Assembly (NCBI GenBank): GCA_035444565.1
Contig: DAOMOX010000002.1
Coordinates: 8,013-72,012, forward strand
Direction: 5' to 3'
DNA from: Candidatus Dojkabacteria bacterium
Lineage (GTDB): Bacteria; Patescibacteriota; Dojkabacteria; B142; OLB20
Length of the DNA: 64,000 bases
Position 1 is the stretch's first letter. The number at the start of each line of letters is the position of its first letter. Shown piece after piece: positions 1,538 through 15,141 of this stretch. The translations under genes were made by a program, and so were the position numbers. The notes beneath the pieces are model-generated. The model was given only the letters and a program-made list of their open reading frames with translations, was not told where the DNA came from and did no database searches.

Positions 1538-2272
1538 CTAATTAATTAATGTTGATGATTTTAACCTTTTTTCTATAGTCTTTTCAATCCAATATCGATT
1601 TATGAAGGTAATTAGGCTCTGAGTCTCATCGTCTATATTTAGTTTTAAACTGTCAGACAATTTATTCTCAAGATAGAATTTTTGGATTTTTAAAACTCTG
1701 TCACTCACAATCTTCGCTTTTGTGTCCGACTTTGTAAGATTATATCCCAACTCATTTCCGAAAGATAGAACTCGTGTTTCATTTTCTAAGATTGATTCTC
1801 CGGATTTTATATAATTCTCGACATTCGGTGTAAAACCAGCTAAATCAAGCAGTTTCAATTCAAAGGAGCTTAACAATTGAAGGAATTTTGCTGAATTTAT
1901 AGTTGTCAATTCAAGTAAATCATAAAGTAGATTATATGCTTTAATCTCATCATCGTTTGTGGAATTTAATTTCTCTATGATTTCTAGGATGTAGAGTAAA
2001 TGATTAATTATTTTTTTGTCCTGTTTCAAATCCTGATAATCATTTAAAACTTGTACTTCCCTTAGTAAATCTATACTTTTTGTTTCATAATAAGTAAATC
2101 TTGAGTGATTGAGGAGATCGATTGAACTGCCACGCTTAGAGCTTGATTTCCCTACCCCTTTTGCAATTGTTTCAACATTTCCGTGCTTTCTTGTTAAGAA
2201 AACTACCAATTTATCGGCTTCTTGGAATTGCTTAATTTTGATTATAAATCCGTATTCGGACTTTGTTTTCAT
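1538..2272 (-). CDS. recO: DNA repair protein RecO
   Basis: N-terminal OB-fold region GFIIKIKQFQEADKLVVFLTRKHGNVETIAKGVGKSSSKR matches the RecO N-terminal pattern (G.VL..R...E.D.I..L.T...G......ARG..K..S). Length is about 244 aa. The C-terminal zinc-finger cysteines are absent. Confidence 0.6.
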   Translation of the reverse strand: MKTKSEYGFIIKIKQFQEADKLVVFLTRKHGNVETIAKGVGKSSSKRGSSIDLLNHSRFTYYETKSIDLLREVQVLNDYQDLKQDKKIINHLLYILEIIEKLNSTNDDEIKAYNLLYDLLELTTINSAKFLQLLSSFELKLLDLAGFTPNVENYIKSGESILENETRVLSFGNELGYNLTKSDTKAKIVSDRVLKIQKFYLENKLSDSLKLNIDDETQSLITFINRYWIEKTIEKRLKSSTLIN

Positions 2273-2742
2273 AGTCCTAATTTTTCAATGATGTTACTCG
2301 AGGAGAAATTATCAATTTTTTCAATAACTATTAATTCTCCACCTGCTCTTTCAATTATAGACTTTTTGTTTTCAATTCCAGAATCTCCTTTAACCACCGC
2401 AAGGTATTTAGGCTTCATTTGTAGTACGAAGTCTCTCAATTCTTCCCAAGATGATTTCCATTTATATACATAATCAATTGTTCTTACATAAGACAATGCT
2501 TCTGCCCGCTCGTCTTGAGAAAATATTGGTCTATTTAATCCTTTTCTTCTTTTTATTTCCTCATCACTTAAAATAACTGTTAATATCTTTACTGAAGGTT
2601 TTAATATTGATTTAGTTTTTGAGAAAAATCTTAAATGGCCAAGATGCAGAACATCAAAGCTGCCCGTAATTAGGGCAACTTCGTGTTCTTTAAATAACTT
2701 CAATACATCTTTTTCGTTAATTATTTTTGACATTAACCACAT
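2269..2742 (-). CDS. HxGH-motif cytidylyltransferase-like nucleotidyltransferase (RfaE/HldE domain II-like, ADP-heptose synthase-type adenylyltransferase)
   Basis: GSFDVLHLGHLRF (HxGH motif), SDEEIKRRKGLNRPIFSQDERAEALSYVRTIDYV and KGDS align to the HldE C-terminal domain / TagD-like cytidylyltransferase fold. The start overlaps the stop of the upstream tandem-NrdJ gene. Confidence 0.55.
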   Translation of the reverse strand: MWLMSKIINEKDVLKLFKEHEVALITGSFDVLHLGHLRFFSKTKSILKPSVKILTVILSDEEIKRRKGLNRPIFSQDERAEALSYVRTIDYVYKWKSSWEELRDFVLQMKPKYLAVVKGDSGIENKKSIIERAGGELIVIEKIDNFSSSNIIEKLGL

Positions 2743-5700
2743 TTAGAATAACCACAGGATCTACATAGTATACATCCTTCTGCATATTCTAAATCAGAAC
2801 CGCACTCAGGGCAATCCAACATGTCTCCAAAATGATTATCTTTCGAGTAACCGTGGCTAGAATCCTCTTCGACGATAATTGTTTGAGTTGTGACTGTAGT
2901 TTCCGCTACATATTCAATATCAGCAGGATTTTGCTCTTCTGCACTTAATGTAGGCTCAATTGGAGCATTTGACATACCATCATCAATTAATTCTTCGTTC
3001 ACTTCAGGTACTTCTTGCTCAGGGAACATCTTTATTTGTTCACGTTGTTCTTCGATGTGTTTTTTCAAGATTTTCGCGACTGCATCAGGTACTGAGTAAA
3101 TGAACATTCCACGATTCATTGTAGGAGTTGAAGTACGAATTCCTTGAAGTTGTTTTACAATCGATTCGGGTTTTATTCCAGATCGAAGAGCCATAGAAAT
3201 CATTCTACCTAATGCTTCCGTATAGCCTTGAGTGAAACTTCCGCTTTTACCGATATTTAGGAATACTTCAACAATGCCTTGGTCGTCTTCATTAATCGTA
3301 ATATAAAGATCTCCTTGCTCAGTTTTGACTTCGTAGGTTTTTCCTCTAGTTACAAGGTCTCTTTTTCTTGGCTCCAAGACATTGCGAGGCATTTGAATAG
3401 AAACTGTTTCATCGGTCTTTTCGATGGTTGTTTCTTTTTTGGAAGTTCCGACTTGTAAAGCAGGGTCTTTGCTTCCATCTCTAAAAATCGTAATGCCTTT
3501 GCATTCTAAATCGTAAGCAAGTTCGTATACTTTTGCAACATCTTGCCAAGTAGCACTATTTGGGAGATTAATTGTTTTCGAAACAGCACTATCAACAAAT
3601 TTCTGGAACACAGCTTGAATTTGGACATGAGATTCGGGTGCAATTTCATGAGTTGTGACAAATACATTTACAATGTTTGCAGGAATGTTGTATTTGTTTG
3701 CAATATCTTTCAGATGAACACCATTTGCAATCTCAGCCATAAGCTCAGGTGAATAGAAGTTGTATTTCTTGGCATAGGTGAGGAATTGCTTATCAATAAC
3801 TTCCTGGTCAACTCCACCCATTGAATTCTTCCTTCTGTAACCTAGGGAGAAAATTGGCTCGATTCCGGGATTGCAATCAGCAATTATTGAAATTGTACCT
3901 GTTGGAGCAATAGTAGTTGTACGGACATTTCGCATGTATTTCTTCTCCGTTTTCCAATTTGACTCATTGAATGCTGGGAAGTTGCCTTTTTCTTTTCCTA
4001 ATGCTTCGGAAGCGATGTGTGACTTTTCTTGTATGAATTTCATTATCTCCCCTGCTAACTTGATAGATTCATCACTACCATATGCTATCCCCAAATCTAT
4101 CAAAATATCAGCAAATCCCATAATTCCAACTCCTATATTACGAGTTTTACGAGTCATTTCTTCGATTTCTTTTATAGGATAATTATTCACATCGATAATA
4201 TTATCCAGGAACCTTACTGCGGTACTGGTTGTCTTCTCCAACTCTGACCAATTTATCATCTTCAATTTATCATTGAGGCTTAGATTGATTAAGTCGTCAT
4301 AGGAGATATTATCGGGGACATTTACAAATTTAGCAAGGTTGATATGTCCCATGTTGCATGTTTCAAATGGAATTAGGGGTTGTTCCCCACATGGATTTGT
4401 AGCATCCATTGTTCCAAGTGATGGTGTGTTGTTTTTTGCTTCTGCACGATCAAGAAAATACATTCCGGGATCACCACTTTGCCAAGCATGTTTGGCAATT
4501 CTTTCAAACATTTCACGTGCTTTTAGTACTTTGTATGTCTTATTGTCACTTGGATCAATTAAATTCCAATCCAAATCATCTTTTACGGCTTTCATAAAAT
4601 CATTACTCGCACCCACTGAGATGTTGTAATGTGTGATTGAGGTTAAATCATCCTTACATGATATGAAATCTTCAATATCTGGATGACTCGCATTCAGAAT
4701 TGCCATAGAACCTAGACCTCTGCCTCCTCTACCTTTTATGGTGTCCTGAGCACGATTAAACATACGAATATACTCCACAGGACCTGCTGCGTTTTCACCT
4801 GTTGTTTTTACCTTTGCATATGATGATCGTATCTTAGAGAAATTGAAACCCGTTCCGACTCCTCTCCTCAAACACTGAATATTCATATTTAATGTATGAA
4901 AAATCGAGTCTATTGAATCTTCTATAGGCAAAACCAGACACTTTGACATAATTGTTTCCTCACCCATACCAGCCCATAGAAGTGTTCCTCCACAGAAGAA
5001 TTTACCCTCATTCATCACATCGTAAAATTCTTTCGATACTTTCTTTCTCTTCGATGTAGTTTCACTACTTGCAACGAAATCAGCAATTCTCTGCCAGAGC
5101 TGTTCTGGAGTTTCTGTAACCTCTTCATTGTCATTCTTGTGTAGGGCTCTTTTTTCAAGAACCTGAAGTGCGTTCTCTGTCAATGAATGTAGTGTTTTAC
5201 TTTCTTTCGCCATACTTTCTTCTTGTTTGCTACTTGATAATACTTGGAAGTTCTTGGAACCGTCTCTATAGATGGTGATTCCCTTACAGCCTGATTCCCA
5301 TGCGAGAATGTATGCCTTTTTGACATCATCAATTGAAGCGTCATTTGCTAGATTAATTGTTTTGGATACCGCTGCATCTACTGATTCTTGTGCTGCAGCC
5401 TGCATCTTTACGTGCCACACTGGTTCAATATCATGTGTCGTTACAAATATTTTCTTTGCTACTTCAGGGACCTCAGGGAAACTATCTAAATGACCACCAT
5501 TATCGGCAATTTTCTTCATTAATTCTTCTGAATAAAAATCATGCTCTCTAGCATATGCCTCAAACTCTTCATTTACATAGAAGAGTGACTTTCGGTCTTC
5601 TTGACCTTCATCTTGATAGAAAGATTTTCTTTCGTATACGAGTGAAAAGATAGGTTCTATTCCACTTGATGTATTCGCAACAAGACTTAGAGTGCCTGTT

Positions 5701-7037
5701 GGAGCAATTGAACTCATCGTTGCATTTCTGACCTTTCTTCCCATTTCGTCCCATTTGCTCCCTTCAAATCCCGGGAAAACGCCTCTTTCGGTAGCTAATC
5801 TTTCTGATTCTTTTGTAGATGCTTCTTGAATATATCCGATAATTTTCTTAGTAAGATTAACTGCTTTGTTACTATTGTATGCGATTCCCATTTTGTAGAA
5901 CATGCTACCAAGACCCACAACTCCTAAGCCGAGTTTTCTAGTTTTTTCAACTTCATCGGCAATTTTCTTTAGGGGAAAATCACTAAGATCAATCATATTG
6001 TCGAGAAAGTGAGTCGCTGAATATACAGACTTCTCAAGTAAATCCCAATCTATATCAAAATTACCATCTTTTTCCACTAAATGCGTAGGAAGGACAATAG
6101 AACCTAAGTTACATGACTCATAGGACCTCAAAGGTTCTTCTCCGCAAGGGTTTGTTGCTTCTATAACGCCAAGTGGTTTTGTGGGGTTAGCGTTTTGAGT
6201 AGTATCTAAAAAGAATAAACCCGGGTCTGCACATTCCCATGCTTTTTCACAAATAAGGTCGAAGACCTCCCTTGCTCTTAAGGATTTAACTTTCTTTCCA
6301 TTTCTAGGGTTGATAAGATCGTATTCTTCATCTTCACGAACAGCATTCATAAATTCATCAGTGATTCCAACAGAAATATTGAAATTTCTAATCGTATCAT
6401 CTTGGCCTTTGAGATTAATAAAATTGATGATATCTGGATGATTTATATTAAGAATTGCCATATTTCCTCCACCTCTTTTCTTTCCTTGCAAGACTTGATC
6501 AAATGCTTGCGAAAAAGTTTTAATGAAATGAATCGGTCCTGCTGCAACATTTGGTGTACCTCCAACTTCATCACCCTTTGGTCTAATGTGTGAGAAATTG
6601 AAACCTGTTCCGCCATTGTTTTTCTGCACCAATGCAGCTTCTTTCATGGTATCGAAAATCGATTCTAAATTATCCTCAATCGGCAATACAAAACACGAGG
6701 AAAGCTGACCAGTACCATCAATATTATTTCCTGCTTCATATAAAACTCTTGAACCGGGTAAGAAGCGATTTTCAGACATAATCTGATAGAACTCCTTAGC
6801 TGTTCGTTCGACAACTCTTTGTTTCCTGGCGTCAGAACCCTTGACGTATTTTGAATCTTCAGAGGCCATTGCAGTTGCGACTCTCCAGAACATTTGTCGT
6901 GGGGTTTCGATCGCTTCTCCCTTAGAATCTTTTAGTAAATGACGTTTTTTCATCACCTCAAGAGAATTTGGAGCTATGTTTGGTTCGGGAAGCTCTTTTG
7001 GGGGATCCACGAGGCGTTGCTTATTGTTAGTCGACAT
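2733..7037 (-). CDS. nrdJ: Class II (adenosylcobalamin-type, NrdJ-like) ribonucleotide reductase with TWO complete tandem catalytic domains in one 1434-aa polypeptide, plus a C-terminal beta-hairpin/B12-type domain and a Cys4 zinc ribbon
   Basis: Domain 1 (aa about 20-600) has SSCFVLPIED, ATNPCGEEPL, YESCNLGSIVL, APTGT and ends KGITIYRDGSK. Domain 2 (aa about 615-1195) has the same landmarks: SKCLVLPIED, ATNPCGEQPL, FETCNMGHINL, APTGT, KGITIFRDGSK. The C-terminal extension has PRKRDLVTRGKTYEVKTEQGDLYITINEDDQGIVEVF...GKSG and the terminal CPECG....CILCRSCG. Confidence 0.85.
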   Translation of the reverse strand: MSTNNKQRLVDPPKELPEPNIAPNSLEVMKKRHLLKDSKGEAIETPRQMFWRVATAMASEDSKYVKGSDARKQRVVERTAKEFYQIMSENRFLPGSRVLYEAGNNIDGTGQLSSCFVLPIEDNLESIFDTMKEAALVQKNNGGTGFNFSHIRPKGDEVGGTPNVAAGPIHFIKTFSQAFDQVLQGKKRGGGNMAILNINHPDIINFINLKGQDDTIRNFNISVGITDEFMNAVREDEEYDLINPRNGKKVKSLRAREVFDLICEKAWECADPGLFFLDTTQNANPTKPLGVIEATNPCGEEPLRSYESCNLGSIVLPTHLVEKDGNFDIDWDLLEKSVYSATHFLDNMIDLSDFPLKKIADEVEKTRKLGLGVVGLGSMFYKMGIAYNSNKAVNLTKKIIGYIQEASTKESERLATERGVFPGFEGSKWDEMGRKVRNATMSSIAPTGTLSLVANTSSGIEPIFSLVYERKSFYQDEGQEDRKSLFYVNEEFEAYAREHDFYSEELMKKIADNGGHLDSFPEVPEVAKKIFVTTHDIEPVWHVKMQAAAQESVDAAVSKTINLANDASIDDVKKAYILAWESGCKGITIYRDGSKNFQVLSSSKQEESMAKESKTLHSLTENALQVLEKRALHKNDNEEVTETPEQLWQRIADFVASSETTSKRKKVSKEFYDVMNEGKFFCGGTLLWAGMGEETIMSKCLVLPIEDSIDSIFHTLNMNIQCLRRGVGTGFNFSKIRSSYAKVKTTGENAAGPVEYIRMFNRAQDTIKGRGGRGLGSMAILNASHPDIEDFISCKDDLTSITHYNISVGASNDFMKAVKDDLDWNLIDPSDNKTYKVLKAREMFERIAKHAWQSGDPGMYFLDRAEAKNNTPSLGTMDATNPCGEQPLIPFETCNMGHINLAKFVNVPDNISYDDLINLSLNDKLKMINWSELEKTTSTAVRFLDNIIDVNNYPIKEIEEMTRKTRNIGVGIMGFADILIDLGIAYGSDESIKLAGEIMKFIQEKSHIASEALGKEKGNFPAFNESNWKTEKKYMRNVRTTTIAPTGTISIIADCNPGIEPIFSLGYRRKNSMGGVDQEVIDKQFLTYAKKYNFYSPELMAEIANGVHLKDIANKYNIPANIVNVFVTTHEIAPESHVQIQAVFQKFVDSAVSKTINLPNSATWQDVAKVYELAYDLECKGITIFRDGSKDPALQVGTSKKETTIEKTDETVSIQMPRNVLEPRKRDLVTRGKTYEVKTEQGDLYITINEDDQGIVEVFLNIGKSGSFTQGYTEALGRMISMALRSGIKPESIVKQLQGIRTSTPTMNRGMFIYSVPDAVAKILKKHIEEQREQIKMFPEQEVPEVNEELIDDGMSNAPIEPTLSAEEQNPADIEYVAETTVTTQTIIVEEDSSHGYSKDNHFGDMLDCPECGSDLEYAEGCILCRSCGYSKCG

Positions 7038-7075
7038 GATAGTAAGTACGGTTACAATTAAATATAGCCGTGAGT

Positions 7076-7942
7076 TTATTTTTGCTCTTTGGTTAACTCA
7101 CGAATGAAAAAGGCAGATTTTTCAAATATTTTATATATTGAAGGTAATACTTCATCTTGTTTGATGTCTTGGAAATGTTTCCACGTGACATCTGGATTTG
7201 TCATTTTAGATTTTTCGGTATTTACTCTTGCAATGAAAAACTCAACCAGTCCTGCGAAGTCATCTCTTCCATGAAAAGATTGATCGGTGAAAGGAATCGC
7301 TCCATCCTCGATTTCAATCTCATAATCATTTTTTAAATTCTGTGCTAAATTCGCACTTAACATCTCCCATGTACTTCCGGGAAGATTTACAACATCTCCT
7401 ATCGGTAAAGTCCATAGACCGCCATCTTTCATGGAAGTATTATCTTTAACGAGCATAAATTCGTTTTTGTCATTCAGTACAATTCCTGCGACCGAGATAA
7501 AATGTAGTTTACTTTTAGTCTGTAGTGAATTATATGCAGACTCGTATATTTCATGTACTACCGGAAGTGTCTTTAATTCACGAATTTCTGAGATAGATTT
7601 CCATTCCACTTTTTCAACTTCTTCTGTTGAGGCTTTGATTTCTCCCGATTCGTATTTGGATAGAAATGCTATAGCTACCACCTTGTTCTTTTCATCATCT
7701 ACAAATTGATGAGAACTTAAGTAATTAGGATATTTAATTTTTGCTCCAGTTTCTTCTTCTACTTCTAGATGAAGGCTTTTTTCTAGTGCTTCGTATTTTT
7801 CTTTTTCATTAAAATGAAGCTCTCCAACATGATAGGAATACACACCAGGCATTATCTTTTCTTTTTTACTACGTGAAGCAATTAAAAACTTTTGTTCGTC
7901 GTTGTATACAACTCCAATAATTAATATTTTGTACTTATCCAT
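7076..7942 (-). CDS. Nudix-fold hydrolase-like protein (two-lobed), non-canonical Nudix box
   Basis: N-terminal half ILIIGVVYNDEQKFLIASRSK...PGVYSYHVGELHFNEKEKYEALEKSLHLEVEEETGAKI has the Nudix beta-grasp pattern and a LEVEEETG box, with the usual Arg substituted and the Gx5E spacing degenerate. It sits inside the RNR operon. Confidence 0.4.
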   Translation of the reverse strand: MDKYKILIIGVVYNDEQKFLIASRSKKEKIMPGVYSYHVGELHFNEKEKYEALEKSLHLEVEEETGAKIKYPNYLSSHQFVDDEKNKVVAIAFLSKYESGEIKASTEEVEKVEWKSISEIRELKTLPVVHEIYESAYNSLQTKSKLHFISVAGIVLNDKNEFMLVKDNTSMKDGGLWTLPIGDVVNLPGSTWEMLSANLAQNLKNDYEIEIEDGAIPFTDQSFHGRDDFAGLVEFFIARVNTEKSKMTNPDVTWKHFQDIKQDEVLPSIYKIFEKSAFFIRELTKEQK

Positions 7943-7949
7943 AGGATGA

Positions 7950-8402
7950 CTAATAACTTAACCAATTAAAATAATTTTTATCGTGTGCAAGTTCATCAAA
8001 GAGCTCAGCAGTTAGTGTCCTATTGAAAGATGAAATCAAGTAAGCTTCGATAAATTGTTGTGCATCTGAGTGAGATATTTCTTCAATTTGAGCGAATTTC
8101 AATGCTAACTTCTGGAAAGAAAGTTTTGGAGAATCCTCGTCAATTTGGATCTTCATTCTAAGAAATAATTTACTTTGACCAGTTGATTGAATTTCAACTG
8201 CTTTAAGGATGTTCTCTGGCTTTAAGGTAGACATTCCGATAATTACGAATTGCCAGCCCTCACTATCTGTCCAAACCTTAGTAATTTCTGTATGTTCTAC
8301 ATTAGATGTGTCGATTGTAACTCCTTGTTCCAAATCGAACTTAATTTTGTCTAATAGTTTATCTGGACTAATTTTTAATGAGTCAAATGTGATTTTTTCC
8401 AT
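7950..8402 (-). CDS. Hypothetical 150-aa protein translationally coupled to the stand-alone NrdJ (overlapping stop/start)
   Basis: Intact ORF whose start overlaps the nrdJ-3 stop at 8402. No recognisable motifs. It lies where the fused RNR carries its C-terminal extension. Confidence 0.35.
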   Translation of the reverse strand: MEKITFDSLKISPDKLLDKIKFDLEQGVTIDTSNVEHTEITKVWTDSEGWQFVIIGMSTLKPENILKAVEIQSTGQSKLFLRMKIQIDEDSPKLSFQKLALKFAQIEEISHSDAQQFIEAYLISSFNRTLTAELFDELAHDKNYFNWLSY

Positions 8403-10180
8403 TATTTTAAATTTAATACTTGTTTATCACGGCTCTTATCTCTATAGATAGTAAAGCCTTTTAATTTAAGACTAGCTGCTAATTTAAATGCCTCAATGAT
8501 GTCTTCTACTTTAGCACTTTCAGGCATGTTTATTGTTTTCGTGACGGCGTTATCCGTATGTTTTTGGAACGCTGCTTGAGTCCTGATATGCCATTCTGGC
8601 GTAATATCTCCTGCAGAGACAAATATTTTCTTGAGTTTATCAGGGACTTCTTTAATATCTTTGACACTTCCCTTTCGTGCAACTTCTTGCATGATTTCAT
8701 CTGAATAAACCCATTCCTTTTTCAATGCTTTTTCTAAGTACTTGTTCATATAAATTAGCTCCGAGTCACCGACTGTTTCCATATTCTTTCTAACATAAGC
8801 CATCGCAAAGAATGGTTCGATTCCACCGTTGCAATCTGCAACTAAGCTGGTAGTCCCAGTTGGAGCAATTGTTGTTACTGTAGAGTTTCTCATGTTCTTA
8901 TAGCCTTTCTTATCCCATCTCGATCCTTTGAAATTTCCAAAATCTCCTCTGATTTCTCCTAAATTTTGAGATGCTTCATGTCCTGTTTTCTTAATAAACT
9001 TCATCACTTTTTCAGCTAGTTCAAGAGCTTCTTCACTATCGTATTTCACACCTAATTCAACAAGCATATCAGCCCAGCCCATAACCCCTAAACCAATCTT
9101 CCTGTTTCCATATTTAACAATCTTTTCAATTTCAGGAAGTAAATGATTTGAAACTGTAATTGTGTTATCTAAGAATCTGATAGCAGTATTTATCACGAAT
9201 TCTATTCTTTTCCAATCAATTTTCTCCTCGGTAGGAATTGACAGGTTCTTTTTTGAATCAATAATGAATTTGTTCAAGACAATGGAGCCAAGATTACATG
9301 CCTCATACGGAAGTAATGGTTGTTCACCGCACTGGTTTGTAGCAGTCATTTTTCCCACATTTGGCGTGGGATTGTATCTATTAATTTCGTCAATAAAAAC
9401 GAACCCAGGTTCACCACTTCGATATATACTTTCCGCGATTTTAGTAAGTAATGCTTGTGGGTTTAAGGTTTTATAAACTTGATTTTTGAATTTCAAATCA
9501 AATGTTTTGCCATCGTTTAAAGACTTAACAAATTCGTCGGTGATTGATATCGAAATATTGAAATTTGTAAGTTGAGAATAATCTTCTTTCGCAGAAATGA
9601 ATTTCTCGATTTCCGGATGATCAATTCGTAAAATCCCCATGTGACCAGCATGTCTGACTGCTCCACGGTTTAGAATAACTTCTGATGAAAAATCGTACAA
9701 TCGCATAAACGAAATTGGTCCGCTAGCCTCCCTACCTGTTGATGTTACAACTTCATGTTCAGGTCTAATAGTCGAAAAATCATAACCGATTCCTGCACCT
9801 CTCCGATGGAGAACTACAGTATTGGCAAGAGTTGTATAAATTGATTCAAGACTATCTTCGATTGGCATTACATAACATGCTGCTACTAAGTCTTCTTTCC
9901 CTCTGTCTAAAAGTGACATACCTGATAGAAACTCCAGATTGGACTGTATTTCATAAAAATCGGCAATAATCTGCTCGAGTTGTTTCTTGGAGGGTTTTTT
10001 GTATCCTTCTTTTTTGTCAGAATTATCTGACTCGGCTCTAGATATGAAGTTTGAGACTCTTTCGAACATTTGGGAATGTGTTTCTAAAGGTTTTCCATTT
10101 TTATCAATTTTTAAATATCTCTTTTCTACTATAAACTTGGCGTTTTCTGTTAATTTGGGAGTTTTATTTTTCACAGTCAT
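8402..10180 (-). CDS. nrdJ: Class II ribonucleotide reductase catalytic subunit (third NrdJ paralog, 592 aa, no C-terminal extension)
   Basis: VAACYVMPIEDSLESIY, ATNQCGEQPL, YEACNLGSIVL, APTGT, and it ends KGFTIYRDKSRDKQVL exactly where domain 1 of the fused enzyme ends. Confidence 0.85.
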   Translation of the reverse strand: MTVKNKTPKLTENAKFIVEKRYLKIDKNGKPLETHSQMFERVSNFISRAESDNSDKKEGYKKPSKKQLEQIIADFYEIQSNLEFLSGMSLLDRGKEDLVAACYVMPIEDSLESIYTTLANTVVLHRRGAGIGYDFSTIRPEHEVVTSTGREASGPISFMRLYDFSSEVILNRGAVRHAGHMGILRIDHPEIEKFISAKEDYSQLTNFNISISITDEFVKSLNDGKTFDLKFKNQVYKTLNPQALLTKIAESIYRSGEPGFVFIDEINRYNPTPNVGKMTATNQCGEQPLLPYEACNLGSIVLNKFIIDSKKNLSIPTEEKIDWKRIEFVINTAIRFLDNTITVSNHLLPEIEKIVKYGNRKIGLGVMGWADMLVELGVKYDSEEALELAEKVMKFIKKTGHEASQNLGEIRGDFGNFKGSRWDKKGYKNMRNSTVTTIAPTGTTSLVADCNGGIEPFFAMAYVRKNMETVGDSELIYMNKYLEKALKKEWVYSDEIMQEVARKGSVKDIKEVPDKLKKIFVSAGDITPEWHIRTQAAFQKHTDNAVTKTINMPESAKVEDIIEAFKLAASLKLKGFTIYRDKSRDKQVLNLK

Positions 10181-10197
10181 AGTAATTTTTATGAAAT

Positions 10198-10671
10198 TTA
10201 TTTAGTTTTTAATTCTTTGATTGCTTGCTCGAAATCTTCAATGGTATTGAAATCTCGATAAACTGAAGCAAACAATAAGTATGCTATTGTGTCGAGCTTT
10301 TTTAATCTTGTTAATACCATCTGTCCGATTTCAGTACTTTTTACAATTGTTGTTTTACGATTGAGAAGTTTTAGTTCAATGTCATCAAGTAAGTCATCAA
10401 TTTGACTTTCTGTAAGATCGCGCTTCTTGACTGCCTTCATGATACCTTTTTTGAGTTTTTCTCGATCGAATTCTTCTACTTTCCCACTCCTTTTGTGAAC
10501 ATTTAAGCTGATTGTTTCCACACGCTCATATGTAGTAAAACGTTTCTTACAGTTCAAGCACTCTCTACGTCTCCTAGTTACACCGGATTCGTTATTGTCT
10601 CTCTTGTCGACAACTTTACTTACTACGCGATGACAGTACGGACAAATCATAATAAAATCATTATTGCGCAA
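10198..10671 (-). CDS. nrdR: Transcriptional repressor NrdR (the true start is probably the internal Met at nt 10650, MICPYCH...)
   Basis: Zinc ribbon CPYCH...CLNCKKRFTTYE and an ATP-cone (KRDLTESQIDDLLDDIE...LDTIAYLLFASVYRDF), collinear with bacterial NrdR. It lies directly upstream of nrdJ. Confidence 0.9.
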   Translation of the reverse strand: MRNNDFIMICPYCHRVVSKVVDKRDNNESGVTRRRRECLNCKKRFTTYERVETISLNVHKRSGKVEEFDREKLKKGIMKAVKKRDLTESQIDDLLDDIELKLLNRKTTIVKSTEIGQMVLTRLKKLDTIAYLLFASVYRDFNTIEDFEQAIKELKTK

Positions 10672-10704
10672 GGGAAATTAGAAAGCATGCCCCTTACTTT
10701 CAAA

Positions 10705-10751
10705 ACACAACAGCTTGTGTTGTCCAACTAGACTAACAACTATAACTTGTG
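10705..10751. promoter_or_regulatory. Candidate tandem NrdR boxes: box 1 ACACAAcagcTTGTGT (10705-10720, palindromic arms) and box 2 acaactataacttgtg (10736-10751), centres about 31 bp apart
   Basis: 16-bp ACAC....GTGT-type palindrome matching the NrdR-box shape. A second, weaker half-palindromic copy sits at the canonical roughly three-helical-turn spacing, 35-100 bp upstream of nrdR and the downstream RNR genes. Confidence 0.45.
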
Positions 10752-10820
10752 CTTGTCAAGCAAATTTACACTATTAAATGTAAAGAATTCGAAATGTTCT
10801 TTAGTGTGGCAAAGTTGAAC

Positions 10821-13415
10821 TCAATCCTCAATATTGTCCTGCAATTCCTTGATCTTAAGTAAAGCATCAAGTGGGGAAATTTCTTCAATTTTGATTTGTT
10901 TGATTTTTTCTTTTAATTCACTATCGTTTCCAGTACTAATAAAAGAGAGTTGATCTTGATAATCAATACTTTCTTCTGTGACTCTCTTCAATTGGTTTTC
11001 TTCAAGTTCTTCGAGAATATCATCTGCCCTTTGAATTACGCTATTTGGAATCCCAGAAATTTTGGCAACATATATTCCGTAGCTTCGATTAGTAAACCCC
11101 GGCAGAATTTTATGCATAAAAATTATTTTTTCACCCTGTTCATTTACTTCTACAAAATAATTCTTTACTCCAGGGAGTTTTTCTTCGAGGAGAATTAATT
11201 CGTGATAATGTGTGGCAAACAAAGTTCTAGCCTTGATTGTATTCACAATATGTTCTACTACAGCCCAAGCAATCGCAAGTCCATCGTAGGTACTAGTACC
11301 TCTTCCGATTTCATCAAGAATTATTAAAGATTTCTCAGTAGCGTTGTTCAATATGTTTGCTGTCTCAAGCATTTCAACCATAAAGGTGGATTCTCCCCCT
11401 GCAAGATTGTCTGCAGAACCAACTCTGGTAAAGATTCTGTCAGTTAAAACAATTTTGGCATAATCGGCTGGTACGAAACATCCGATTTGTGCCAAAATAA
11501 ACAAAATTGCAACTTGTCTAATATATGTTGATTTACCCGACATATTTGGTCCTGTGAGAATTACAAAATCAGTATTTCCTTGCTTAAAATAAACATCATT
11601 AGGGATAAACTGATCTTTTATTGATGACTCGACAACAATGTGACGAGAATTTTTAAACTCAGTTGTTTGACTGATGTCATCAGTGATCTCTGACCGAATC
11701 ATTTTCATTTCCAGAGATAACTTCGCAAAATTCACATAAACGTCAATTATTGAAATAGCCTTTGAATATGAAATTATCGAACTAATTCTATTTATAATCT
11801 TTTCCCGCAAATCTTCAAATATTTTATATTCAACCTCAGAGGCTTTTGACTGGGCTTCTAATACAATGACTTCCCATTTTTTCAACTCCTCTGTAATATA
11901 TCTTTCAGCATTAACTAGTGTTTGTTTTCGTATGTAGTTATCTGGTGCCTTCTGTGAATTTGATTTGCTGATTTCAATGTAATATCCGAATACTTGATTA
12001 AAGCCAACCTTTAAGCTAGAGATTCCAGTTTTTTGTTTTTCAGAAGCTTCAAGATTTTTTATGTAATCTCTTCCATTTTTTGCTTCTATGTTAATTTTAT
12101 CAAGCTCAACGTCATATCCTTCCTTGATAATATTTCCCTCTGTAATGGTTATTGCCGGCTCTTCTTTAATAGAGTTATCTATCAGGTCAACTATAAATTT
12201 TATTTCTGAATATATATTCTCGTCAGGAAGATTTTTCTGGAATATTTTTAATTCGCTATTTTTAATTTTGGTGTAAAGACTATTCGCATTGTGAAGACTA
12301 TTCTTAAAGTAGATTAAATCTCTAGCGTTTATTGCTCCCGTAGCTAATCTTGAAGTTAATCTTTCTACATCAACAATTTCATCAAGATCTGATATCAATT
12401 TCTCTAATAGTTCTCTGTTTTCAATTAATTCGCTCACATTATCGTATCTTTTCTCTATTTGTTGCTTATCTTTGAGAGGTCTAAGCAACCAATTGCGCAA
12501 AAGTCTCTGTCCCATCGCTGTCCTACAGTGATTAATTGTATTGAACAAAGAATTTTCATTATTTCCCCTCAAAGAGTAAAACAACTCCAAACTATTTATC
12601 GTGGTTTGGTCTAGGTTAATATAGTCGCTGTTCTGTTGAAGTGTGATGGTTTTTATATGTTTAAGTTCTGTTTTTTGTGTATTCTCAAGATATTTATATA
12701 GAACGCCAGCACTTGTGACTCCAACTAAATATTTCTCAATTCCGAAGGACTTAAAGGAAGAAATATTCATCTTTTCGAGTAGTAGCCTCGAACTCTTTTG
12801 AAAATCAAATTCGTAATTATCTAGATGTTGTATGGAAAACTTTGAAAGAAGAGAACGGATTGGTTCGAACTGACTTCTATTCACAATTAATTCTGCCGGT
12901 CTTATCCTGTATAACTCTTGAATTAAATCATTTGGTAATTGATTCTCCCTTGATGAATACTCATTTATTTTAAATTCACCTGTACTTAAATCACTATAGG
13001 CTAACCCCCATTTTTTTGATCTTTTCTCGTAGTAGATAACTGCTATGTAGTTATTCTCATATTCACGTAATAGATTTTCATCAAGAATTGTTCCTGCAGT
13101 AATTACTTTAACAACATCTCTTTTTACTAGCTTGCCGGTTGTTGCTGGTTCAAGTTGATCTGCTAGCGCAACTTTATTCCCATTTTTAATTAACTTGGGT
13201 AAATATTGCTTGAGAGCATGATGAGGAATACCAGCCATTGGGATCCTATTCTCAGCCTTACCGCGACCTGTTAAAGTAATTCCCAACACCTTTGAAATTG
13301 TTTTGGCGTCTTCATCAAAAGCCTCATAAAAATCTCCCAATCTAAACAAAAGGATACAATCCGGGTATTTATCCTTCAAGTTGAGGTATTGTGAATACAT
13401 CGGGGTGTCTGCCAT
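10821..13415 (-). CDS. mutS: DNA mismatch repair protein MutS
   Basis: N-terminal mismatch-binding domain (GDFYEAFDEDA), the full domain architecture, Walker A GPNMSGKST, DEIGRGTSTYDGLAIAWA, FATHYHEL. 864 aa; the stop is TGA. Confidence 0.95.
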   Translation of the reverse strand: MADTPMYSQYLNLKDKYPDCILLFRLGDFYEAFDEDAKTISKVLGITLTGRGKAENRIPMAGIPHHALKQYLPKLIKNGNKVALADQLEPATTGKLVKRDVVKVITAGTILDENLLREYENNYIAVIYYEKRSKKWGLAYSDLSTGEFKINEYSSRENQLPNDLIQELYRIRPAELIVNRSQFEPIRSLLSKFSIQHLDNYEFDFQKSSRLLLEKMNISSFKSFGIEKYLVGVTSAGVLYKYLENTQKTELKHIKTITLQQNSDYINLDQTTINSLELFYSLRGNNENSLFNTINHCRTAMGQRLLRNWLLRPLKDKQQIEKRYDNVSELIENRELLEKLISDLDEIVDVERLTSRLATGAINARDLIYFKNSLHNANSLYTKIKNSELKIFQKNLPDENIYSEIKFIVDLIDNSIKEEPAITITEGNIIKEGYDVELDKINIEAKNGRDYIKNLEASEKQKTGISSLKVGFNQVFGYYIEISKSNSQKAPDNYIRKQTLVNAERYITEELKKWEVIVLEAQSKASEVEYKIFEDLREKIINRISSIISYSKAISIIDVYVNFAKLSLEMKMIRSEITDDISQTTEFKNSRHIVVESSIKDQFIPNDVYFKQGNTDFVILTGPNMSGKSTYIRQVAILFILAQIGCFVPADYAKIVLTDRIFTRVGSADNLAGGESTFMVEMLETANILNNATEKSLIILDEIGRGTSTYDGLAIAWAVVEHIVNTIKARTLFATHYHELILLEEKLPGVKNYFVEVNEQGEKIIFMHKILPGFTNRSYGIYVAKISGIPNSVIQRADDILEELEENQLKRVTEESIDYQDQLSFISTGNDSELKEKIKQIKIEEISPLDALLKIKELQDNIED

Positions 13416-13515: not shown

Positions 13516-14721
13516 TTAACCTTCTTTAGCACATGTTACAACTTCGACTAATGAGTAATGTGATTGATTACACTTTCGAAGACTTGAGTTCTTGACACAT
13601 GTGTCGAATTCAGCCTTTGTGTAATTTAAGTCACTTCTTAGTGAAATGCTATCGTATTTTCCTTCGAGATTTAGATAGGTAACACTACTTGGTACTCCAT
13701 CATTTACTTCAGGTGTTATATTTTTTCTACAGTATTTGAATTTACTGTATTCTGCTTTTGGATCATTAATATCCAATAGATTTACTCCATCATCCCATGT
13801 CTTGGTATTTCCAAGATCTTCACATACAGATGTCTGTGTTTTGGTTGCTGAACTTTGAAGATCATTGTATTTGATACTCACTGTATGATTCTCATTGTTC
13901 TGAACCTTAGGATTGAAAGCATTTCCAATTTGTGGATTTGTTTCTGTAGCTCCAGTCCAACCCCACATTGTTCTTACTGCAATAGGGTATTTCTTTGCAA
14001 CTGCACTTAAGTTTACCGTACCAAGATCAAAGCTTCTTTGGTTTGCCTTTGATGCTACGAATTCACCTGAGTACAACTTCTGTGTTGTCCATTGAGTACA
14101 AACTAATGGTTTGTTAGTTGGTGTAGGTGTCGCACTTGGTCTAGGTGTTGCGGTTGCTGTTGGTCTTGGTGTAGCTGTAGCCGTTGGAATTGTAGGTGGA
14201 GTTGCCGTAGGTCTTGGTGTAGATGTTGCAGTTGGAGTTGCAGGTGAACATTTCTGATCAAATTGTGTCTTTAGAATACTTAAGTTTGCATCATTAAATG
14301 GTCCTCTTACTCCATTCAGCTGGCAGTAGTCATTGTCTATTTCATAATGGCAATAATTCCATGCATCTGCTGAGTATTGGACATAAAAATCATTGGCTTG
14401 CGCTCCATCCCACTGTATCACTGAGCACCTTGTATCTACGGGATTTGGAACCTGCGCATTATTAAGAGTGACAGCTGGTCCAATTTCTACACGACCCAAC
14501 CCGCCAAGATAACCACCTACCGCAGTATTACAAGTCTTAAGTGGATTCTGATTCAACTCAGATCTTGTGATTCTACAATAATCAGCACTTCCATTTATTC
14601 CTAGAATTCCATTATCTAAAGCAATAGAAGTTTCGGTATTACTGGGCAATACCATTGCAGAAATCATAGTTATCACTATGAATGCCACTAATGTAGTGTA
14701 TCCTATTAAAAGGTTTTTCAT
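13516..14721 (-). CDS. Secreted/membrane-anchored protein: N-terminal signal anchor, six-Cys N-domain, Pro/Thr-rich linker and a Cys-containing C-terminal domain; paralog of the N-domain of the ORF at 57592-59040
   Basis: MKNLLIGYTTLVAFIVITMISAMVLPS is a hydrophobic N-terminus. DYCRITRSELNQNPLKTCN...DTRCSVIQWD...NYCHYEIDNDYCQLNG...FDQKCSP aligns with the 482-aa protein. The linker is TPTATSTPRPTATPPTIPTATATPRPTATATPRPSATPTPT. Confidence 0.6.
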   Translation of the reverse strand: MKNLLIGYTTLVAFIVITMISAMVLPSNTETSIALDNGILGINGSADYCRITRSELNQNPLKTCNTAVGGYLGGLGRVEIGPAVTLNNAQVPNPVDTRCSVIQWDGAQANDFYVQYSADAWNYCHYEIDNDYCQLNGVRGPFNDANLSILKTQFDQKCSPATPTATSTPRPTATPPTIPTATATPRPTATATPRPSATPTPTNKPLVCTQWTTQKLYSGEFVASKANQRSFDLGTVNLSAVAKKYPIAVRTMWGWTGATETNPQIGNAFNPKVQNNENHTVSIKYNDLQSSATKTQTSVCEDLGNTKTWDDGVNLLDINDPKAEYSKFKYCRKNITPEVNDGVPSSVTYLNLEGKYDSISLRSDLNYTKAEFDTCVKNSSLRKCNQSHYSLVEVVTCAKEG

Positions 14722-14874
14722 TAGTAAATAAATAAAATATAAAATATAAATAGAGATTATTCTCTATAATCATTATATCATTCAATTCAAAACTCATGTT
14801 GTAAAAAAACTTTTTTATATTTGTACTTATGATATTTCACAATTTAGGATATAATTAACATTATAGCAGTTAAT

Positions 14875-15060: not shown

Positions 15061-15141
15061 GCCGGGATGGCGAAATGGTAGACGCGCTAGTCTTAGGAAC
15101 TAGTCCCTTCGGGGGTGGAGGTTCGAGTCCTCTTCCCGGCA
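15061..15141 (+). tRNA. tRNA-Leu (anticodon UAG), class II tRNA with a long variable arm
   Basis: Acceptor GCCGGGA/TCCCGGC with discriminator A. D-arm GCG-AAATGGTAGA-CGC. Anticodon stem CTAGT/ACTAG with loop CTTAGGA. Variable arm CCCTTCGGGGG. T-arm GGAGG-TTCGAGT-CCTCT. No encoded CCA. Confidence 0.85.

Follow-up and report, generated by a model that had tools for sequence, protein, structure and literature searches.

NrdR regulons carry tandem NrdR boxes over the promoters of nrd genes. Class II RNRs of the NrdJd type have been studied by Loderer et al. (2017, PMC5704485). Their cysteine-rich redox domain (CRD) is 150-220 aa long, and all six CRD cysteines are essential. Reduction of an active site by the CRD of a different subunit was shown, and NrdJd paralogues that lack a CRD are found only in genomes that also encode a CRD-bearing one. 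In vitro reconstitution of a CRD-lacking NrdJd with free CRD failed, and trans reduction was seen only between full-length subunits (PMC5704485). The split class II RNR of Pseudomonas aeruginosa consists of NrdJa and NrdJb, the latter being a CRD with cysteines (PMC4520616; summarised in PMC5704485). More than 97% of NrdJ proteins carry the apical-loop motif P-N-S-P (diphosphate) or P-A-G-R (triphosphate), and genomes with several nrdJ genes usually mix phosphate specificities (Schell et al. 2021, PMC8365446). In Bacillus subtilis, the MutT-like Nudix gene ymaB is co-transcribed in the nrdI-nrdE-nrdF-ymaB operon, and dNTP hydrolysis affecting RNR regulation has been proposed for its product YmaB (PMC5960316).

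Here we compare a locus of Candidatus Dojkabacteria with these systems. The term window is used for the whole 64-kb stretch of DNA that was analyzed, and related loci are designated by L numbers. With a probability of roughly 60%, the region is the front end of an NrdR-repressed operon for a class II (AdoCbl-dependent) RNR, belonging to a type that is conserved in Patescibacteria, with three cores that would form a hetero-oligomer with one shared CRD and with lineage-specific accessory genes.

Results

Gene order of the locus

On the minus strand of the window, nrdR is followed by nrdJ-3 (J3), ORF150, a Nudix-like gene and a tandem NrdJ gene.

10198-10671, minus strand: nrdR, 157 aa when read from TTG, Zn-ribbon and ATP-cone repressor
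8402-10180, minus strand: nrdJ-3 (J3), 592 aa, free-standing class II RNR core with no CRD and no ATP-cone
7950-8402, minus strand: ORF150, 150 aa, orphan, its ATG overlapping the J3 stop codon by 1 nt
7076-7942, minus strand: tandem Nudix-fold gene, 288 aa
2733-7037, minus strand: fused tandem NrdJ gene, 1434 aa, encoding D1, D2 and CRD

Intergenic gaps measure 17 nt (nrdR to J3), 7 nt (ORF150 to the Nudix gene), and 38 nt (Nudix gene to fused gene). At 8400-8404, the sequence TAATG contains both the J3 stop (TAA) and the ORF150 start (ATG), with one base in common. No terminator-like sites were found on the minus strand between the operon genes. ORFs, family scans and junctions all agreed with the gene order that had been proposed from the sequence alone. 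That proposal was centred on 7076-10671; the fused NrdJ gene lies outside this interval, yet it is part of the same system.

NrdR and its putative binding sites

The nrdR product matched TIGR00244 with 158.8 bits (cutoff 124.65), as well as PF22811 and PF03477. Because the TIGR00244 match begins only at residue 8, the true nrdR start is probably the in-frame ATG at 10650. Three elements were located upstream.

10754-10759, minus strand: -35-like hexamer TTGACA of the predicted operon promoter
10737-10752, minus strand: NrdR-box-like site 1, GCACAAGTTATAGTTG, between the -35 and -10 hexamers
10705-10720, minus strand: NrdR-box-like site 2, ACACAAGCTGTTGTGT, a perfect palindrome with its centre 32 bp from that of site 1

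A -10-like hexamer, TAGTCT, lies 18 nt downstream of TTGACA, and the layout TTGACA...TAGTCT/TAAGCT is kept in L004, L009, L010, and L016. We infer that this pair of hexamers acts as the operon promoter. Site 1 agrees at 11 of 16 positions with what we take to be the NrdR-box consensus, and its position is kept in L004 and L009 (ACACAATCTGTAGTTG) and in L010. Site 2 is the sole zero-mismatch match to ACACAA-N4-TTGTGT in the 64-kb window, and is kept in L004, L009, L010, and L016. The product thus shows the Zn ribbon, the ATP-cone and the equivalog-level score of an NrdR, with two putative boxes 32 bp apart over the promoter. The sequence-only reading had described an NrdR-headed operon; a single putative NrdR-controlled promoter upstream, with two box-like sites conserved in relatives, supports it.

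Three catalytic cores

J3 matched TIGR02504 (NrdJ_Z) with 580.9 bits (cutoff 399.95), PF00317, and PF02867 (E = 4e-115), and aligned to Thermotoga maritima NrdJ (1xje) with E = 5e-98. No TSCPD domain was detected in J3 by the family scan. In the fused protein, two PF00317+PF02867 units precede a TSCPD domain (residues 1235-1327) and a C-terminus rich in Cys. D1 occupies approximately residues 1-612, D2 approximately residues 613-1200, and the CRD residues 1200-1434. The J3 C-terminus (...YRDKSRDKQVLNLK) falls in the alignment column where the D1 core ends; J3 had been said to end there and to lack the C-terminal extension, and the alignment bore this out. The J3, D1, and D2 cores share 39-44% identity.

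The apical phosphate loops differ among the families. D1 has the triphosphate type P-G-[S/G]-R. J3 has S-G-M-[S/P/V/T] (S-G-M-S in the window), and D2 has [C/S]-G-G-T or S-G-Q-A; neither loop is P-N-S-P or P-[A/S/G]-G-R. Loop 2 is also distinct in each core, with a one-residue insertion in J3 of the window. The J3 finger loop reads NQCGE in place of NPCGE, and across J3 sequences the variable residue is Q or L, not P. As each core has its own phosphate loop and loop 2, the comparison suggests that J3, D1, and D2 may share out substrate or regulatory work. We put this division of labour forward as a hypothesis, because the D2 and J3 apical loops fit no motif of known specificity.

The catalytic set Cys/Asn/Cys/Glu/Cys was invariant in 100 D1, 100 D2, and 115 J3 sequences. 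These five residues are the thiyl-radical Cys, the redox Cys pair, and the Asn and Glu of the N-x-C-G-E finger loop. The three cores had been called catalytically intact, and judged by these residues all of them look active. An alternative is that D2, J3 or both are pseudo-enzymes that provide only a dimer interface and an effector site, which would resemble the interface-mimicking insertion of monomeric NrdJm or yeast Rnr4 in R2 heterodimers. Inactive paralogues normally lose catalytic residues, whereas D2 and J3 keep all five and also retain the distal phosphate loop IAPTGT.S. The alternative draws on their atypical loop 2 and on apical loops outside both motifs of >97% of NrdJ (PMC8365446); we consider it improbable.

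One CRD, proposed to serve three cores

In the CRD of the fused protein (residues 1200-1434), a disordered linker connects a TSCPD domain to a six-Cys zinc ribbon. The CRD matched PF12637 with 79.8 bits (cutoff 22.8). Its cysteines C210, C213, C223, C226, C229, and C234 were invariant in 12 diverse sequences. A TSCPD region with a six-Cys array at the extreme C-terminus identifies the segment as a CRD. The motif CPxCG...EGCxxCRxCGxSKCG was found solely at the end of the fused protein, i.e., only D2 carries a CRD. We propose that J3, D1, and D2 would act jointly as a hetero-oligomer and that, by analogy with NrdJd, the single CRD would re-reduce the J3 and D1 active sites in trans.

J3 could instead be an independent class II isozyme. 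It would then be a homodimer with another phosphate or substrate preference, co-transcribed but not associated with the fused protein, and ORF150 and the Nudix gene would be chance insertions in a permissive slot. The usual mixing of specificities in genomes with several nrdJ genes speaks for such an isozyme (PMC8365446). Against it, J3 has no redox tail, and a CRD-less NrdJd is known only beside a CRD-bearing partner (PMC5704485). J3 was also directly upstream of the fused gene in all loci examined, down to 51% identity. We regard this explanation as doubtful, though it keeps some weight.

Distribution and phylogeny of the cores

At least 120 protein clusters contained the fused double NrdJ of 1400-1500 aa, at identities as low as 44%, with the source names Dojkabacteria, Kerfeldbacteria, Parcubacteria, and 'Patescibacteria group'. 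J3-type cores of ~590 aa likewise made up at least 120 clusters, at identities as low as 51%, and their contigs often matched in length those carrying the fused genes. The two genes were adjacent in L001, L004, L017, L018, L019, L028, and L029. Three such cores had been considered unusual for a small genome. This view was refuted: the pair of J3 and fused D1-D2-CRD is widespread in Patescibacteria, and three NrdJ cores are the norm in the clade, not an oddity. No description of a tandem-core NrdJ was found in the literature searched. The source annotations give 'adenosylcobalamin-dependent ribonucleoside-diphosphate reductase' or 'hypothetical protein' for all these genes. In L017, a CobA/BtuR adenosyltransferase gene lies downstream of the operon, which is at most suggestive of AdoCbl dependence.

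A neighbour-joining tree of the cores was built with eight outgroups. A phylogeny of the three NrdJ domains had been suggested as a way to tell internal duplication from horizontal acquisition. Each family was monophyletic (bootstrap 85% for D1, 98.5% for D2, and 100% for J3), but joint monophyly of the three was weak (47.5%). Genome-matched identities were alike for J3, D1, and D2. By sequence comparison, the three families were shown to be each old and to evolve at similar rates.

ORF150

ORF150 encodes an acidic protein (pI 4.85) of 150 aa with no cysteine. It had no Pfam or NCBIfam match, including TSCPD (PF12637). It is conserved and under purifying selection, and is judged to be a real gene of an orphan family. 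ORF150 follows J3 in one Dojkabacteria subclade only; its distant relatives are located in unrelated contexts with no link to RNR genes. The ORF150/J3 junction has a 1-nt overlap in the window, L001, L004, L009, and L010, a 4-nt overlap in L030, and a 1-2 nt gap in L016 and L028. The tight linkage to nrdJ-3 that had been noted in the window was present in all lineages having ORF150, and ORF150 is probably translationally coupled to J3.

The sequence-only reading had suggested that ORF150 may be a detached C-terminal or partner module of J3. As a split-off equivalent of NrdJb or the CRD, it would feed reducing equivalents to J3. In favour of this are the position of the gene, which is that expected for a CRD after the core, the overlap of its start with the J3 stop codon, and a size near the 150-220 aa of a CRD (PMC5704485). 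However, ORF150 has none of the six cysteines essential in the CRD (PMC5704485), no TSCPD match, an hhalign probability of 0.2% against the CRD, and a predicted fold that differs from that of the CRD. ORF150 was also absent from several syntenic relatives (L017, L018, L019, and L029), an absence that the sequence-only reading had itself named as counting against the idea. ORF150 was therefore rejected as a CRD or NrdJb, and we find the detached-module idea extremely improbable. As ORF150 is missing in many genomes with the same three cores, it is not essential to the core mechanism. Most likely, ORF150 would be a stoichiometric, non-redox binding or regulatory partner of J3. It would possibly dock via its invariant aromatic C-terminal tail (...FNRTLTxELFxELxHDKxYFxWLxY).

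The Nudix gene and the accessory slot

The 288-aa protein matched PF00293 (NUDIX) with 40.8 bits (cutoff 21.1) in its N-terminal half only (residues 9-124). Both halves aligned to the MutT-related protein 3grn, and the alignments indicate two Nudix-fold halves arranged in tandem. The Nudix fold recognised earlier was thus confirmed, but not as a single Nudix domain.

Relative to the Nudix box G-x5-E-x7-R-E-U-x-E-E-x-G-U, the N-terminal half reads E51-x7-L59-E60-V-E-E63-E64-T-G-A. It keeps E51, E60, E63, E64, and G66, with Leu for the box Arg and a shifted Gly. In the C-terminal half, Q-N-L-K-N-D-Y-E-I stands at the R-E-U-x-E-E-x-G-U positions and the box residues are gone; this half has a conserved motif, DGAIPFTDQSF. 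Orthologues in L030 (REIKEE) and L028 (RTVFEETGI) are nearer to canonical. Given the missing box Arg and the non-canonical spacing of the Gly, the activity of the protein in the window is uncertain. Most likely, the tandem Nudix protein would hydrolyse (d)NTPs that are produced by the reductase or regulate it. This may keep the nucleotide pool clean or serve in processing, e.g., of dUTP to dUMP.

The Nudix gene is optional, being present in some relatives and missing in others. In all loci seen, it occurred only with ORF150 and directly after it (window, L001, L010, L015, L028, and L030), so ORF150 could instead serve the Nudix protein, e.g., as a specificity or inhibitory subunit. Such a partnership is rather improbable. 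ORF150 is highly conserved and still overlaps the J3 stop codon where the Nudix gene has been lost (L004, L005, L006, and L009), and the overlap is with J3, whereas the Nudix gene begins 7 nt downstream.

In other loci, J3 and the fused gene are separated by a 53-aa ORF, a 205-aa ORF, an exonuclease-domain gene, or nothing. This slot collects lineage-specific accessory genes, two of them in this lineage. In L019, a Ham1 domain and a dCTP deaminase/dUTPase-family gene occur in or beside the same operon; an exonuclease-domain gene is also found there in other lineages. The proposed nucleotide-pool role of the Nudix protein is plausible, in analogy to YmaB and to the Ham1 domain and the dCTP deaminase/dUTPase-family gene. 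That the slot genes differ and are unrelated across lineages, and that distant ORF150 relatives have no RNR linkage, would also fit chance neighbours. Against chance stands the start/stop overlap of ORF150 and J3, which is kept across lineages whose ORF150 proteins are 39-60% identical.

Discussion

The locus most likely encodes a hetero-oligomeric class II RNR with one shared redox domain and with accessory genes that vary by lineage. A bolder version is that J3 and the covalent D1-D2 pseudo-dimer form one obligate hetero-oligomeric reductase with a single CRD. Three specialised active sites (D1 as a triphosphate reducer, D2 and J3 as new specificity types) would replace one allosterically switched site, and ORF150, docked on J3 by its invariant aromatic C-terminal tail, would be an RNR accessory subunit of a new kind. 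We think this version unlikely, and state it as a speculation.

Patescibacteria have tiny genomes and rely mostly on nucleotide salvage, and to our knowledge they are mostly unable to make B12. Many of them nevertheless devote ~6 kb to three distinct B12-dependent reductase cores. Every characterised RNR that we know of balances dNTP supply by allosteric switching of a single active site. If the cores divide substrates or phosphate levels among them, this would be a different solution to dNTP balancing. The natural tandem fusion offers a defined heterodimer for the study of subunit cross-talk and CRD reach. The D2 and J3 apical loops lie outside the motifs used for NDP/NTP prediction and therefore provide a direct test of that rule. 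The protein family of ORF150 is uncharacterised, but its predicted co-expression with J3 offers a clear point of entry for experiments.

Compared with NrdR regulons, the locus has the same Zn-ribbon and ATP-cone repressor and two putative 16-bp boxes that resemble palindromes, overlap the promoter and lie roughly three helical turns from each other. A difference is that nrdR is here the first gene of the operon that it presumably represses. As in other genomes with several nrdJ genes (PMC8365446), the paralogues differ in their apical-loop motif, and D1 has the triphosphate-type P-G-[G/S]-R. Unlike in those genomes, the paralogues are adjacent and two of them are fused, and J3 S-G-M-x and D2 [C/S]-G-G-T fall outside the motifs described there.

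As with NrdJa and NrdJb of P. aeruginosa (PMC4520616, PMC5704485), a CRD-less core is followed by a small separate gene. ORF150 lacks both cysteines and a TSCPD domain and is predicted to fold differently, so it is not an NrdJb. Like YmaB (PMC5960316), the Nudix protein is encoded by a MutT-like gene that would be co-transcribed with RNR genes. The operon is class II here and class Ib in B. subtilis. The protein here combines two Nudix folds in tandem, one of them degenerate, lacks the box Arg, and is optional among close relatives.

NrdJd (PMC5704485) shares with this system an AdoCbl-type core, a CRD with a TSCPD-type region and six conserved cysteines ending in ...CGxSKCG, and the coexistence of CRD-less paralogues with a CRD-bearing one. 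For NrdJd, a CRD was shown to pass electrons to the active site of a different subunit, whereas for J3 and D1 we infer such transfer. The D2 and J3 apical phosphate loops are non-canonical, unlike those of NrdJd. A further difference is the number of distinct cores per CRD, which is three here: two joined in a single polypeptide and one encoded directly upstream of it.

Organization of the operon

The sequence-only reading had described three NrdJ paralogs in one NrdR-headed operon. ORF calling, family scans and reading of the junctions from the sequence upheld this gene arrangement in every structural detail; the interpretation placed on it was supported in part. Minus-strand genes run unbroken over 2269-13415, from mutS through a small nucleotidyltransferase gene (ORF calling and family scans).

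Features of the operon and its flanks, in order of transcription
10821-13415, minus: mutS
10737-10752: NrdR-box-like site 1, between the TTGACA and TAGTCT hexamers
10705-10720: NrdR-box-like site 2, perfect 16-bp palindrome ACACAAGCTGTTGTGT, just past the -10 hexamer
10198-10671, minus: nrdR; true start probably the ATG at 10650, the family match beginning at residue 8
8402-10180, minus: nrdJ-3, encoding a free-standing 592-aa NrdJ core (J3)
7950-8402, minus: ORF150, 150 aa, without family match
7076-7942, minus: Nudix-like gene, 288 aa
2733-7037, minus: fused NrdJ, 1434 aa; two full RNR units, then a TSCPD domain and, at the C-terminus, a Cys-rich segment
2269-2742, minus: nucleotidyltransferase gene, 157 aa (PF01467), scoring under the RfaE domain II threshold

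The junction between nrdR and nrdJ-3 is 17 nt as read from the sequence. The nrdJ-3 stop and the ORF150 start have one base in common (TAATG), ORF150 and the Nudix gene are 7 nt apart, and 38 nt separate the Nudix gene from the fused gene. Within the fused protein, the first core (D1) covers approximately residues 1-612 and the second (D2) approximately 613-1200. Sources name identical or near-identical proteins as Candidatus Dojkabacteria (candidate division WS6, Patescibacteria).

The nucleotidyltransferase gene (2269-2742, minus) shares 10 nt with the 3' end of fused nrdJ and is followed by recO and a (d)CMP-kinase-like gene. PF01467-family genes were also found 3' of the fused gene in the related loci L001, L004 and L029. 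On the other side, a 401-aa ORF (13516-14721, minus) without Pfam or NCBIfam match lies between mutS and a plus-strand tRNA gene (15061-15141).

Putative promoter and NrdR-box-like sites

A TTGACA hexamer lies upstream of nrdR, with TAGTCT 18 nt downstream of it. The centres of the two NrdR-box-like sites are 32 bp apart, and the palindrome at 10705-10720 is the sole exact match to ACACAA-N4-TTGTGT in the 64 kb window. This layout of promoter and boxes was kept in the diverged relatives L004, L009, L010 and L016. On the minus strand between the operon genes, no terminator-like site was found. Together with the conserved promoter and boxes, this suggested that the operon is likely expressed as one autoregulated transcript.

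Rfam gave no match in the operon; its only match in the window was the tRNA. In the nrdR 5' leader (10655-10700, minus), a GGGG...CCC(C) hairpin sits downstream of NrdR box 2 and ahead of the start codon, and the leaders of L004, L009 and L010 have similar G-run/C-run pairs. The hairpin folded no better than shuffled sequence (single-sequence fold, z = -0.88) and had no Rfam match.

Conservation and divergence of the three cores

In every locus fetched, nrdJ-3 was directly upstream of the fused gene. The search with the fused protein returned 1400-1500-aa double NrdJs with identity down to 44%, from sources named Dojkabacteria, Kerfeldbacteria, Parcubacteria and 'Patescibacteria group'. The J3 search returned ~590-aa cores lacking the C-terminal cysteine-rich domain (CRD), with identity down to 51%; many of their contigs match in length those carrying fused genes. 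With at least 120 clusters of each type across Patescibacteria, the earlier remark that three cores are unusual for a small genome does not hold. The three-core system is conserved and not peculiar to this genome. Fused nrdJ of the distant Patescibacteria relative L017 is directly followed by a gene (14227-14763) for a CobA/CobO/BtuR ATP:cob(I)alamin adenosyltransferase, an arrangement consistent with imported cobalamin being salvaged and adenosylated for this enzyme.

All three domains had been read as catalytically intact. The five catalytic residues (equivalents of T. maritima C134, N320, C322, E324 and C333) were invariant in D1 (100/100), D2 (100/100) and J3 (115/115), and genome-matched identities gave similar evolutionary rates for J3, D1 and D2. 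On both grounds, the possibility that one paralog is a pseudogene was rejected for all three cores. Judged from their sequences, all three look active.

In a neighbour-joining tree of the cores that included eight outgroup NrdJs, each of the three paralogue families was monophyletic, with bootstrap values of 85% for D1, 98.5% for D2 and 100% for J3; the deeper nodes lacked resolution (D1 with D2, 52%; all three together, 47.5%). J3, D1 and D2 had pairwise identities of 39-44%. J3 was ~41-42% identical to NrdJ of Rubrobacter or Manganitrophus and 39-42% identical to D1 or D2. As J3 is as similar to these foreign enzymes as to its neighbours, the identities indicated an ancient split of the three cores. 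Recent internal duplication was rejected as their origin, since the paralogues are as distant from one another as J3 is from the Rubrobacter and Manganitrophus enzymes.

Phosphate loops and loop 2

According to Schell et al. (PMC8365446), the apical loop is P-N-S-P in diphosphate reducers and P-[A/S/G]-G-R in triphosphate reducers, jointly >97% of NrdJ, and genomes with several nrdJ genes mostly pair different specificities. The apical loop of D1 was P-G-[S/G]-R, the triphosphate type, with P-N-S-P instead in one lineage. Those of D2 ([C/S]-G-G-T or S-G-Q-A) and J3 (S-G-M-[S/P/V/T]) matched no motif described in PMC8365446. The distal phosphate loop IAPTGT.S was retained in J3, D1 and D2.

In characterised RNRs, the specificity signal resides in loop 2. 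This loop was Q-G-G-x-R-R-G-A in canonical outgroups, QGKKRGGG in D1, GRGGRGLG in D2, and NRGAVRHAG, with a one-residue insertion, in J3. J3 also has G-I-G-Y-D-F-S, as does the triphosphate-type enzyme of Cereibacter, and the Pro of N-P-C-G-E never occurs in J3. Subfunctionalisation predicts just such fixed, paralogue-specific differences in the substrate loops alongside unchanging catalytic residues, a pattern that does not fit loss of activity.

In L018 (10016-14380), D1 was only 49% identical to D1 of the window, versus 71% for J3 and 64% for D2. The database protein P0112 has a diphosphate-type P-N-S-P loop in D1. These two cases hint that D1 may have been replaced or have switched specificity in some lineages.

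ORF150

ORF150 is evidently a real gene. It formed 24 clusters with 52-99% identity, all of 148-151 aa except one 99-aa fragment. Synonymous sites were saturated and non-synonymous divergence was low; against the relative L008, pN was 0.049 and pS was 0.82. Among 1.84 billion representative proteins, a profile search found only 20 family members. Those with E-values to ~1e-29 and readable context were directly 3' of nrdJ-3, the loci with this order being the window, L001, L004, L009, L010, L016, L028 (hhalign 99.9%) and L030. Distant members were in unrelated contexts, one adjoining a tRNA-binding-domain gene and another a response regulator. The distant member P0042 (L011, 7640-8471; L012, 1994-2825) directly follows a 117-aa PF01588 tRNA-binding-domain gene, and no RNR gene is near it in either locus.

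ORF150 had been proposed as a detached C-terminal or partner module of nrdJ-3. As a detached C-terminal domain it failed all tests run. In the profile-profile comparison, the hhalign probability was 0.2% with the CRD and 2.3% with the fused protein as a whole; ORF150 contains zero cysteines, and its predicted secondary-structure order is unlike that of the CRD. It was also absent from the syntenic relatives L017, L018, L019 and L029, which keep all three cores. The weaker idea survives, that ORF150 may be a partner protein. Two observations argue for equimolar co-synthesis of ORF150 and J3: the overlap of the ORF150 start with the J3 stop is conserved, and ORF150 is retained in L004 and L009, which have lost the Nudix gene.

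The variable slot and the Nudix gene

The interval between nrdJ-3 and the fused gene is a variable operon slot, which holds the orphan protein and the tandem Nudix protein in the window's lineage. The slot was empty in L017 and held an unrelated 53-aa ORF in L018, an unrelated 205-aa ORF in L019, and a 59-aa ORF plus a 3'-5' exonuclease-domain gene in L029. The 53-aa and 205-aa ORFs and a 156-aa neighbour of a distant ORF150 member in L011 were tried as ORF150 relatives and rejected, having no relation to it. The exonuclease domain in L029 is of the DNA polymerase A-type 3'-5' kind; its gene (8900-9658, 252 aa) replaces ORF150 and the Nudix gene. J3 of L029 matches a protein named by sources from candidate division WS6 bacterium GW2011_GWA2_37_6.

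The N-terminal half of the 288-aa protein scored above the Pfam NUDIX threshold. Both halves aligned to the MutT-related protein 3grn, which makes the protein a tandem Nudix fold. The N-terminal Nudix box in the window keeps the acidic residues E51, E60, E63 and E64, with Leu replacing Arg. No box is left in the C-terminal half, although conservation is higher there than in the N-terminal half and the motif DGAIPFTDQSF lies in it. In L028, the orthologue is a single domain that corresponds to the C-terminal half and has a near-canonical box (RTVFEETGI), and L030 has a double orthologue with REIKEE in its N-terminal half. The gene was absent from L004, L005, L006 and L009, and in the loci examined it was never seen without ORF150.

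In other lineages, D1 and D2 are separated by a Ham1-type NTP pyrophosphatase domain, and nrdJ-3 is preceded by a dCTP deaminase/dUTPase-family gene. In some Dojkabacteria, as in L019 (10503-15317), the fused NrdJ is ~1600 aa with the Ham1-like (PF01725) domain inserted between the cores; the dCTP deaminase/dUTPase-family gene of L019 is directly upstream of nrdJ-3.

Comparison with known systems

The class II RNR operon combines known parts in a layout for which we found no description, with one CRD and three putatively specialised cores, of which two are fused. No description of tandem or fused NrdJ, or of RNR in the candidate phyla radiation, was found in the literature searched, an incomplete set that leaves undescribed status unproven. 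For RNR and Patescibacteria specialists, the main interest is the three-core architecture with its non-canonical phosphate loops, less so the idea of ORF150 as a C-terminal domain.

The CRD was present only at the end of the fused protein, with the six Cys of CPxCG...EGCxxCRxCGxSKCG invariant; neither J3 nor D1 carries its own redox tail. The CRD matches the one shown by Loderer et al. (PMC5704485) to be needed for turnover. In that work, one subunit's CRD could, within an oligomer, reduce another subunit's active site; the CRD also drove tetramer and hexamer formation, and CRD-less NrdJd paralogues were found only beside a CRD-bearing one. As a caution, a CRD-less enzyme could not be reconstituted with free CRD (PMC5704485). 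The simplest reading is that J3 and D1 would be served in trans by the single CRD within a hetero-oligomer.

The adjoining reductase probably makes dNTPs directly. The Nudix protein may plausibly process the (d)NTP pool or keep it clean, given the Ham1 domain and the dCTP deaminase/dUTPase-family gene in other lineages and the presence in the B. subtilis nrd operon of the Nudix gene ymaB, with reported dNTP pyrophosphohydrolase activity (PMC5960316).
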